A stretch of DNA of 64,000 nucleotides from Escherichia coli (GTDB lineage: Bacteria > Pseudomonadota > Gammaproteobacteria > Enterobacterales > Enterobacteriaceae). The notes beneath the pieces are model-generated. The model worked only from the letters and a program-made list of their open reading frames with translations, was not told where the DNA came from and did no database searches. Of the stretch, positions 18,292 to 18,521 are shown one piece after another. Every line of letters starts with the position of its first letter. The stretch's first letter is position 1. Location: assembly GCF_048403405.1 (NCBI RefSeq), contig NZ_CP183129.1, one strand, 5' to 3'. Made by a program: the position numbers and the translations under genes.

Positions 18292-18521
18292 ATTTCGCTT
18301 TTCAACCATTTTATCTGCTGAATTCCCCATCGTCTGCGATGATGGGGACAACGTACCTCCCATCATCTTCTGTAACCATAATCCACCTCTGCAAGAGAAA
18401 TTCTTGGTGAATGAGTTTGCAGCTATTCATCATCTTCATCCCTTTGAGCGATTTTTGATAGTTTCTCCAGGTAATACTCCCTAAAACTGTCTTATTTAGT
18501 CAACGTAAGAGGATTACAATC

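Follow-up and report, generated by a model that had tools for sequence, protein, structure and literature searches.

A stem-loop past the yajO stop codon near the left end of the espY3 islet OI-26 in Escherichia coli

The role generally ascribed to REP palindromes is that of 3' mRNA stabilisers. There are Rho-dependent terminators in which a protective hairpin upstream defines the mature 3' ends, and a C-rich, G-poor composition is expected of the tract on which Rho loads. The stem-loop described here lies at positions 18324 to 18348 of the window (the whole 64-kb stretch of E. coli DNA that was analysed), past the stop codon of yajO, and can be compared with each of these systems. Like the REP elements, it is a stable imperfect palindrome located just past a stop codon between convergent genes and it has no U-tract, and a REP sits at its place in the K-12-type haplotype, in Citrobacter and in Salmonella. 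Whereas REP and BIME elements occur in many dispersed copies, the hairpin is single-copy in 934 genomes and absent from the other 4492 (33-nt query, E <= 1), and the same query has one match in the 64-kb window. Furthermore, the REP consensus GCC(G/T)GATG...ATC(A/C)GGC, to which the palindrome of the K-12 spacer conforms by eye, is missing from the hairpin. Membership of the REP family was therefore rejected on account of the single copy and the wrong consensus, and the hairpin is REP-like in its working at most. With intrinsic terminators it shares a G+C-rich stem-loop past a stop codon, while their U-tract is missing. With Rho-dependent terminators that have a protective hairpin it shares the missing U-tract and an untranslated, C-rich and G-poor tract downstream, which is a functional analogy only. 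Altogether, the hairpin is of a familiar kind, namely a stem-loop in a 3' untranslated spacer.

The islet in which it is found has been described from O157:H7. OI-26 of strain EDL933 comprises 1983 bp with a single ORF, espY3/z0521 (PMC8565820). The gene espY3 (z0521/ECs0472) is a T3SS effector gene in O157:H7 (PMC6313403), and its product possesses an N-terminal WEX5F domain related to SopD (PMC8565820). The hairpin goes unmentioned in the OI-26/espY3 literature that was consulted.

The islet between yajO and pgpA

According to the ORF list and the annotation, the locus comprises ispA-dxs-yajO on the + strand followed by pgpA-thiL-nusB-ribE-ribD-nrdR on the - strand, the RefSeq annotation being taken from strain TUM14771 (100% identical to the window), K-12 and O157. 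The CDS of yajO (17317 to 18291, + strand, 324 aa; ORF list and RefSeq annotation) ends with a TAA at 18289-18291, and pgpA (20270 to 20785, - strand, 171 aa) holds the right breakpoint of the islet in its last codons. The islet itself extends from 18292 to 20273 (about 1982 bp), as determined from alignments with K-12 and O157 and from the composition profile, in which it shows a G+C content of 23-42% (23-37% inside the gene) compared to about 53% in the flanks. It carries one gene of the espY3 type (18522 to 20093, + strand), the product of which is a pentapeptide-repeat protein of 523 aa; the Pfam and NCBIfam scans gave only pentapeptide repeats and a weak similarity to PipB2/PipB. As an insert of about 2 kb between yajO and pgpA with espY3 as the single gene, the islet is the known O-island OI-26, with which it agrees in locus, in gene content and in size (about 1982 vs 1983 bp). 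Compared to O157:H7, the DNA identity across the 3-kb region amounts to 95.8%, and the espY3 allele of the window strain differs from that of OI-26 in O157:H7. The PGAP annotation uses the name espY3 in O157, and for TUM14771 only "pentapeptide repeat-containing protein".

By megablast, the whole 3 kb (17900-20900) was found in 931 of 5426 complete E. coli genomes, while the genomes without the islet showed matches to the yajO and pgpA flanks only, about 1079 bp apart in total. The 230-nt spacer between yajO and espY3 was single-copy in 934 of the 5426 genomes and always occurred together with the islet. The locus is constant and takes two states among the 5426 genomes, apart from one IS insertion. 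This insertion was observed in E. coli 88COLEC (NZ_CP070906.1, about 1665-3000), where an IS10-type element, annotated as an IS4-like ISVsa5 family transposase and accompanied by a 9-bp target duplication GACAAGGTA, lies between the hairpin and the third copy of its motif (window 18348-18356; see below) and sets yajO and the hairpin about 1.3 kb apart from espY3.

Several allele classes of espY3 (523, 521 and 507-514 aa) share this one locus, with protein identities of 77-89%. A comparison of the 5' half of the gene in the window (18522-19120) with the corresponding part of locus L011 (3001-3600) showed DNA identities of just 52-83%, and the upstream spacer and yajO of the same pair were 97-100% and 89-99% identical, respectively. 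Judged from these alignments, this mosaic points to recombination within the N-terminal half of EspY3 or to diversifying selection on it. As regards a donor of EspY3, the protein search returned E. coli relatives alone down to 75% identity, followed by two proteins at 27%, and the scan of genome contigs gave just E. coli contamination in a Collinsella MAG. The two contigs of this "Collinsella sp." MAG (JAIJJM010000929.1 and JAIJJM010000965.1, about 1 kb each) carry the yajO-espY3 junction and the 3' half of espY3 at 98-100% identity and almost certainly stem from E. coli DNA that contaminates the bin.

At the left junction (18291/18292), the homology to K-12 stops immediately past the yajO stop codon, with one synonymous base different in the last sense codon, and at the right junction it restarts within the final codons of pgpA, at 20274. 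The C-terminus of PgpA (20270-20275; 946-954 in locus L001) accordingly reads ...GIL* with 171 aa in the window vs ...GILS* with 172 aa in K-12-type strains; the PgpA proteins of Citrobacter and Salmonella likewise comprise 171 aa. In K-12 the spacer between yajO and pgpA consists of 53 nt, the core of which is the REP palindrome GCCTGATGAGACGTGACAAGCGTCACATCAGGC (-20.3 kcal/mol), and islet-free strains of three further lineages showed the K-12 spacer at 98% identity. No trace of the hairpin was detected in K-12-type E. coli of the four lineages. In Citrobacter koseri, another Citrobacter and Salmonella enterica, yajO and pgpA are adjacent, separated by spacers of 60-103 nt consisting of REP-type palindromes, and both espY3 and the hairpin are absent from these three outgroup spacers. 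Since the REP spacer is present in islet-free strains as well as in the outgroups, the short REP spacer represents the older state, and since the hairpin is absent from both, it is islet-borne. The insertion of OI-26 replaced the REP spacer from stop codon to stop codon, together with the last codons of pgpA.

An earlier, sequence-only reading had located the hairpin at the left junction of the islet. The hairpin indeed lies near the left end, but 33 nt inside islet-specific DNA and not at the junction itself. The alignment to islet-free strains placed it outside the conserved 3' region of yajO, the breakpoint being the stop codon. A possible REP remnant at the right junction was considered as well, but the similarity of CACCACCCGGT to the Salmonella REP arm CGCCATCCGGC (8/11) was too weak. 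Two REPs matching the consensus are present elsewhere in the window, at 49423-49455 (- strand, GCCTGATGCGACGC...TTATCAGGC) and at 51445-51477 (+ strand, GCCGGATGCGACGC...TTATCCGGC), and both belong to the same family as the palindrome of the K-12 yajO-pgpA spacer.

The same reading had also considered the hairpin as an integration-site feature marking the boundary of the islet. This could not be upheld, as the junction is 33 nt distant from the hairpin, the motif has no counterpart at the right end, and the usual marks of integration were not found. Repeat search and junction alignments showed no flanking direct repeat and hence no target-site duplication, nor do the islet ends carry terminal inverted repeats. 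A 15-nt inverted pair of 80% identity (18283-18297/20171-20185) spans the yajO stop codon and an internal site and was taken as chance. The motif CCCATC(A/G)TC does not occur near the right end, its nearest copy being at 20664 inside pgpA, about 390 nt beyond the junction. Neither a tRNA nor a tmRNA gene was found between 14000 and 24000, and the islet with its single annotated gene contains no gene for a recombinase or transposase. Phage records gave no match, the hairpin was found in none of the viral contigs, and in the plasmid collection the only matches were to NZ_CP141089.1 and NZ_CP134663.1. These two plasmid-listed records comprise 4.9 Mb and are evidently E. coli chromosomes.

Structure of the stem-loop and its surroundings

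The sequence of 18320-18370 is gaattCCCCATCgtctgcgatGATGGGGacaacgtaccTCCCATCATCttc. Within it, ViennaRNA and the repeat finder identified the hairpin TCCCCATCGTC-TGC-GATGATGGGGA on the + strand, in which 18324-18334 pair with 18338-18348. The resulting helix comprises 11 pairs, one of which is G.U (in the DNA a mismatch, G:T), and is closed by the 3-nt loop TGC. The 7-bp stem that had been noticed before, 18325-18331 (CCCCATC) with 18341-18347 (GATGGGG), forms the core of this helix, and its distance of about 35 nt from the yajO stop codon agrees with the helix start 33 nt after the TAA. With 6 G-C pairs, the helix forms a G+C-rich stem-loop as in intrinsic terminators, and the hairpin folded alone showed a free energy of -17.2 kcal/mol. 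By chance, one strand of 64 kb should contain about 0.65 hairpins of such quality, compared to 7 that were seen, and the other long hairpins of the window are mostly flanked by A/T runs. Among dinucleotide-shuffled 230-nt spacers, 0.23% contained such a hairpin.

A U-tract (at least 5 T in 8 bases) directly 3' of the stem is absent on both strands. On the + strand the stem is followed by ACAACGTACC (next bases ACAACGUACC), and on the - strand by AATTCAGCAG. The terminator consensus scan did not call the hairpin at 18324-18348, while it called the one located 3' of espY3, and the Rfam search of 17200-20900 gave no match up to E = 1. The 92 nt directly following the hairpin (18349 to 18440, + strand) constitute a C-rich, G-poor tract with 26 C, 12 G and 18 YC dinucleotides, and their C/G ratio of 2.1 corresponds to the 99th percentile of all 92-nt windows on the + strand. 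Based on this composition, the tract is a candidate rut-like Rho-loading region.

The other two genes that end at this convergent locus have hairpins of their own. The hairpin 3' of espY3 (20189 to 20210, + strand) resembles an intrinsic terminator, with 9 pairs followed by GTTCATTTAT and a free energy of -13.2 kcal/mol. On the - strand, an imperfect hairpin ACCGTGTGGT...ACCACCCGGT was found in sequence and fold 9 nt past the pgpA stop codon (20228 to 20261), and TTTGATTTATAAAT comes next on this strand; from these features it is the probable terminator of pgpA in the islet haplotype. Since the ends of espY3 and pgpA thus possess hairpins with T-runs, a stem-loop is present at every transcript end of the locus.

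Small ORFs overlap the hairpin region on both strands, with 23 aa at 18339-18410 (+) and 42 aa at 18311-18439 (-), and a further one of 96 aa (18076-18366, -) runs antisense to the end of yajO. None of the small ORFs over the hairpin found support as a gene. The 23-codon ORF, which starts in the 3' arm, was rejected; a 1-nt insertion in GPEC856 (near 18394) would shift its frame. The antisense ORFs overlapping yajO look spurious.

It had further been noticed that a related motif recurs 20 nt later in direct orientation. This observation was reproduced: TCCCATCATC (18358 to 18367, + strand) begins 20 nt past the start of the 3' arm and 10 nt beyond the helix. It has the orientation of the 5' arm and forms a perfect complement (9/9) of the 3' arm. 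Together with the two arms, CCCATC(A/G)TC is present in three copies within 44 nt at the hairpin, in the orientations +, - and +. In the whole window, CCCATCRTC occurs 6 times compared to 0.97 expected; three of the six copies belong to the hairpin, while the remaining three lie inside genes or at a distance. In shuffles of the remaining spacer, a 9/9 match of the third copy was obtained with P = 0.002 and an 8/9 match with P = 0.05.

Variation of the stem-loop and of the third motif copy

The 33-nt stretch of the hairpin was exact in 926 of the 934 islet genomes, with one copy per genome, and the 61-nt stretch that includes the third copy was exact in 461 of them. For a closer comparison, 19 distinct haplotypes were drawn from complete genomes, EspY3-variant contigs and metagenome contigs, some of the compared loci having been found via the hairpin pattern itself. 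Among these haplotypes, 30 of the 230 spacer columns were variable. The hairpin contains one variable column, 18338 G>A (in L012), by which the loop-closing pair is broken, and the 18 nt just 3' of it contain six, two of them in the third copy. The mean pairwise difference amounted to 0.6% for the hairpin, 3.3-3.9% for the rest of the spacer and 3.35% for the whole spacer. For the 3' end of yajO, its third-codon positions and the 5' end of espY3, values of 4.9%, 13.9% and 5.3% were determined. The lower diversity of the hairpin is not significant, as one variable column compares to about 3.3 expected in 25 nt (P ~0.16). Covariation was found neither in the main nor in the alternative helix; 10 of the 11 main pairs are invariant and therefore offer almost no variation to test.

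The third copy is polymorphic at 18360 and 18366. It reads CCCATCACC (8/9) in most haplotypes, including all O157:H7, and CTCATCACC (7/9) in two. Since the C allele is found on the more diverse backgrounds, the perfect match of the third copy would be a derived coincidence, and the third copy itself is probably fortuitous. The alternative helix between the 3' arm and the third copy reaches about -14 kcal/mol in the window allele and -9.2 kcal/mol in the O157-type alleles.

A metagenome scan with a degenerate form of the palindrome returned 14 contexts of OI-26 in E. coli and, from environmental contigs, 20 G+C-rich hairpins that are unrelated. In several environmental contigs (e.g. L025, L035, L038 and L043) a perfect palindrome CCCCATCGTC-NNN-GACGATGGGG was observed, sometimes extended up to 16 bp. 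The environmental hairpins were discarded as relatives, as they share stem words only and differ in loops and flanks, which identifies them as generic G+C-rich hairpins.

Possible role at the yajO transcript end and alternative explanations

Among the explanations considered, we tentatively prefer, at slightly short of an even chance, that the hairpin is an RNA-level structure of the 3' end of the yajO transcript, which does a REP-like job and insulates espY3. This preference is based on several observations. The free energy of -17.2 kcal/mol is near that of the K-12 REP (-20.3 kcal/mol) at the same relative position, and the hairpin is far beyond chance expectation (0.23% of shuffles). It is located on the sense strand of yajO, 33 nt past the stop codon, and is followed by 92 nt at the 99th percentile of the C/G ratio. 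Furthermore, it is near-exact (926/934) while the adjacent 28 nt are commonly polymorphic, islet-free strains and outgroups hold REP palindromes at this place, and the two other gene ends of the islet are likewise provided with hairpins. Against the transcript-end role stand the missing U-tract, the lack of covariation and the non-significant conservation, and the high C content downstream may be no more than a local property of the foreign DNA. No 3'-end or ribosome-profiling data usable for this spacer were found in the EHEC Term-seq and RIBO-seq literature.

In detail, the hairpin would form once the ribosome leaves at the yajO stop codon. Having no U-tract, it would not itself terminate transcription; instead, Rho would load on the C-rich, G-poor tract downstream and terminate there, and 3'-to-5' exonucleases would then trim the message back to the hairpin, by which the yajO message would be protected. 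At the same time, the hairpin would reduce the transcription that runs on from yajO, a housekeeping gene, into the effector gene espY3. It would thereby stand in for the REP palindrome of islet-free strains, and the third copy would not be needed. The analysis shows the anatomy, position and stability of the hairpin, its single copy, its linkage to the islet, its near-invariance, the missing U-tract and the C-rich tract; the dependence on Rho, the block of the exonucleases and the insulation of espY3 are inferred. The earlier suggestion of a residual yajO terminator is consequently retained in one respect, since the position fits a role at the transcript end, whereas "residual" does not apply to a hairpin that is absent from islet-free and outgroup spacers, and a U-tract is missing.

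The significance of these results is small and consists mainly in fixing the limits of the known OI-26 in this genome. The islet replaced the whole REP-bearing spacer without a mark of site-specific integration and has its own stem-loops for the three transcript ends. Should the hairpin indeed determine where the yajO message ends, the locus would offer a modest case of imported DNA substituting functionally for a displaced REP. The hairpin would then also help to insulate a horizontally acquired effector gene from a housekeeping promoter.

Another possible, though rather doubtful, explanation is that the palindrome came along as an inert passenger of foreign DNA, for instance as a terminator or repeat of the donor, and has no function, so that its conservation would result from a young islet of single origin. 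A spacer diversity of 3.35%, far below the 13.9% at the third-codon positions of yajO, is expected of such a recently spread segment. The extra conservation of the hairpin within the spacer is moreover not significant, covarying pairs are missing, and the hairpin has neither a U-tract nor an Rfam family. On the other hand, a helix this good is rare by chance, and the 33-nt stretch is changed in just 8 of 934 genomes, while polymorphisms are common just a few bases away on both sides. In addition, the place past the stop codon mirrors that of the REP in the alternative haplotype.

It is unlikely that the palindrome acts as DNA, that is, as an operator at which a dimeric transcription factor would recognise the inverted repeat, alone or together with the third half-site, and control espY3, the start codon of which lies 186 nt downstream of the palindrome centre. 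Two inverted and one direct CCCATC(A/G)TC half-sites within 44 bp, the near-invariance of the palindrome, and the absence of a consensus sigma-70 promoter on the + strand of the spacer, a hint that transcription of espY3 depends on an activator, would be in line with such a site. As DNA, however, the palindrome is imperfect at the G:T position, and its half-site spacing of 3 bp together with the G+C-rich arms is more like an RNA hairpin. Furthermore, the third half-site is degenerate in most haplotypes, and the rest of the window shows no enrichment of the motif. To our knowledge, the palindrome matches no known regulator motif.

More generally, we regard it as quite improbable that the three copies of CCCATC(A/G)TC constitute a regulatory device of any kind, be it an RNA switch or an operator with three half-sites, that gates transcription of espY3 from the yajO promoter. 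In its RNA form, pairing of the 3' arm with the 5' arm may correspond to read-through and pairing with the third copy to a weak terminator. Such an attenuator-like switch, in which the 3' arm (18338-18347) would pair with either the 5' arm or the third copy (18358-18367) to gate read-through into espY3, is itself very improbable. The same very low probability applies to its working, according to which the second helix followed by UUCUGU would be the weak terminator and a factor sequestering the 5' arm would set the gate. The two helices are mutually exclusive and reach -17.9 and -14.0 kcal/mol in the window allele, and across 7 haplotypes 92.9% of the cells are paired, with one change from G-C to G-U. 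However, the A-U pair 18339-18366 is broken in 4 of the 7 haplotypes, including all O157:H7 (-9.2 kcal/mol), and no compensatory changes were found. The loop of 10-12 nt, U at just 4 of the 8 following bases and the lack of an Rfam match likewise argue against a switch, and the 5' arm, 33 nt past the stop codon, is beyond masking by a terminating ribosome.

Finally, a recombination relic, in which the hairpin or its motif would be the remnant of an att core, a transposon end or an IS200/IS605-type subterminal palindrome, could be suspected from the position of the hairpin near the left end and of another one (20189-20210) tens of nt from the right end, but it is hardly credible and largely refuted, as the junction is 33 nt off, the hairpins at the two ends show no sequence relationship, direct or terminal inverted repeats, tRNA and recombinase genes are missing, the two locus states among 5426 genomes speak against an insertion hot spot, and no phage, plasmid or viral contig carries the palindrome.

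A further observation concerns the pgpA side of the islet. The 10-bp stem at 20228-20261 contains one mismatch each in the window and O157 alleles, at different positions. A comparison of the arms of the window (ACCGTGTGGT/ACCACCCGGT) with those of O157 (ACCGGGTGGT/ACCTCCCGGT) indicated that the two combined would give a perfect stem.
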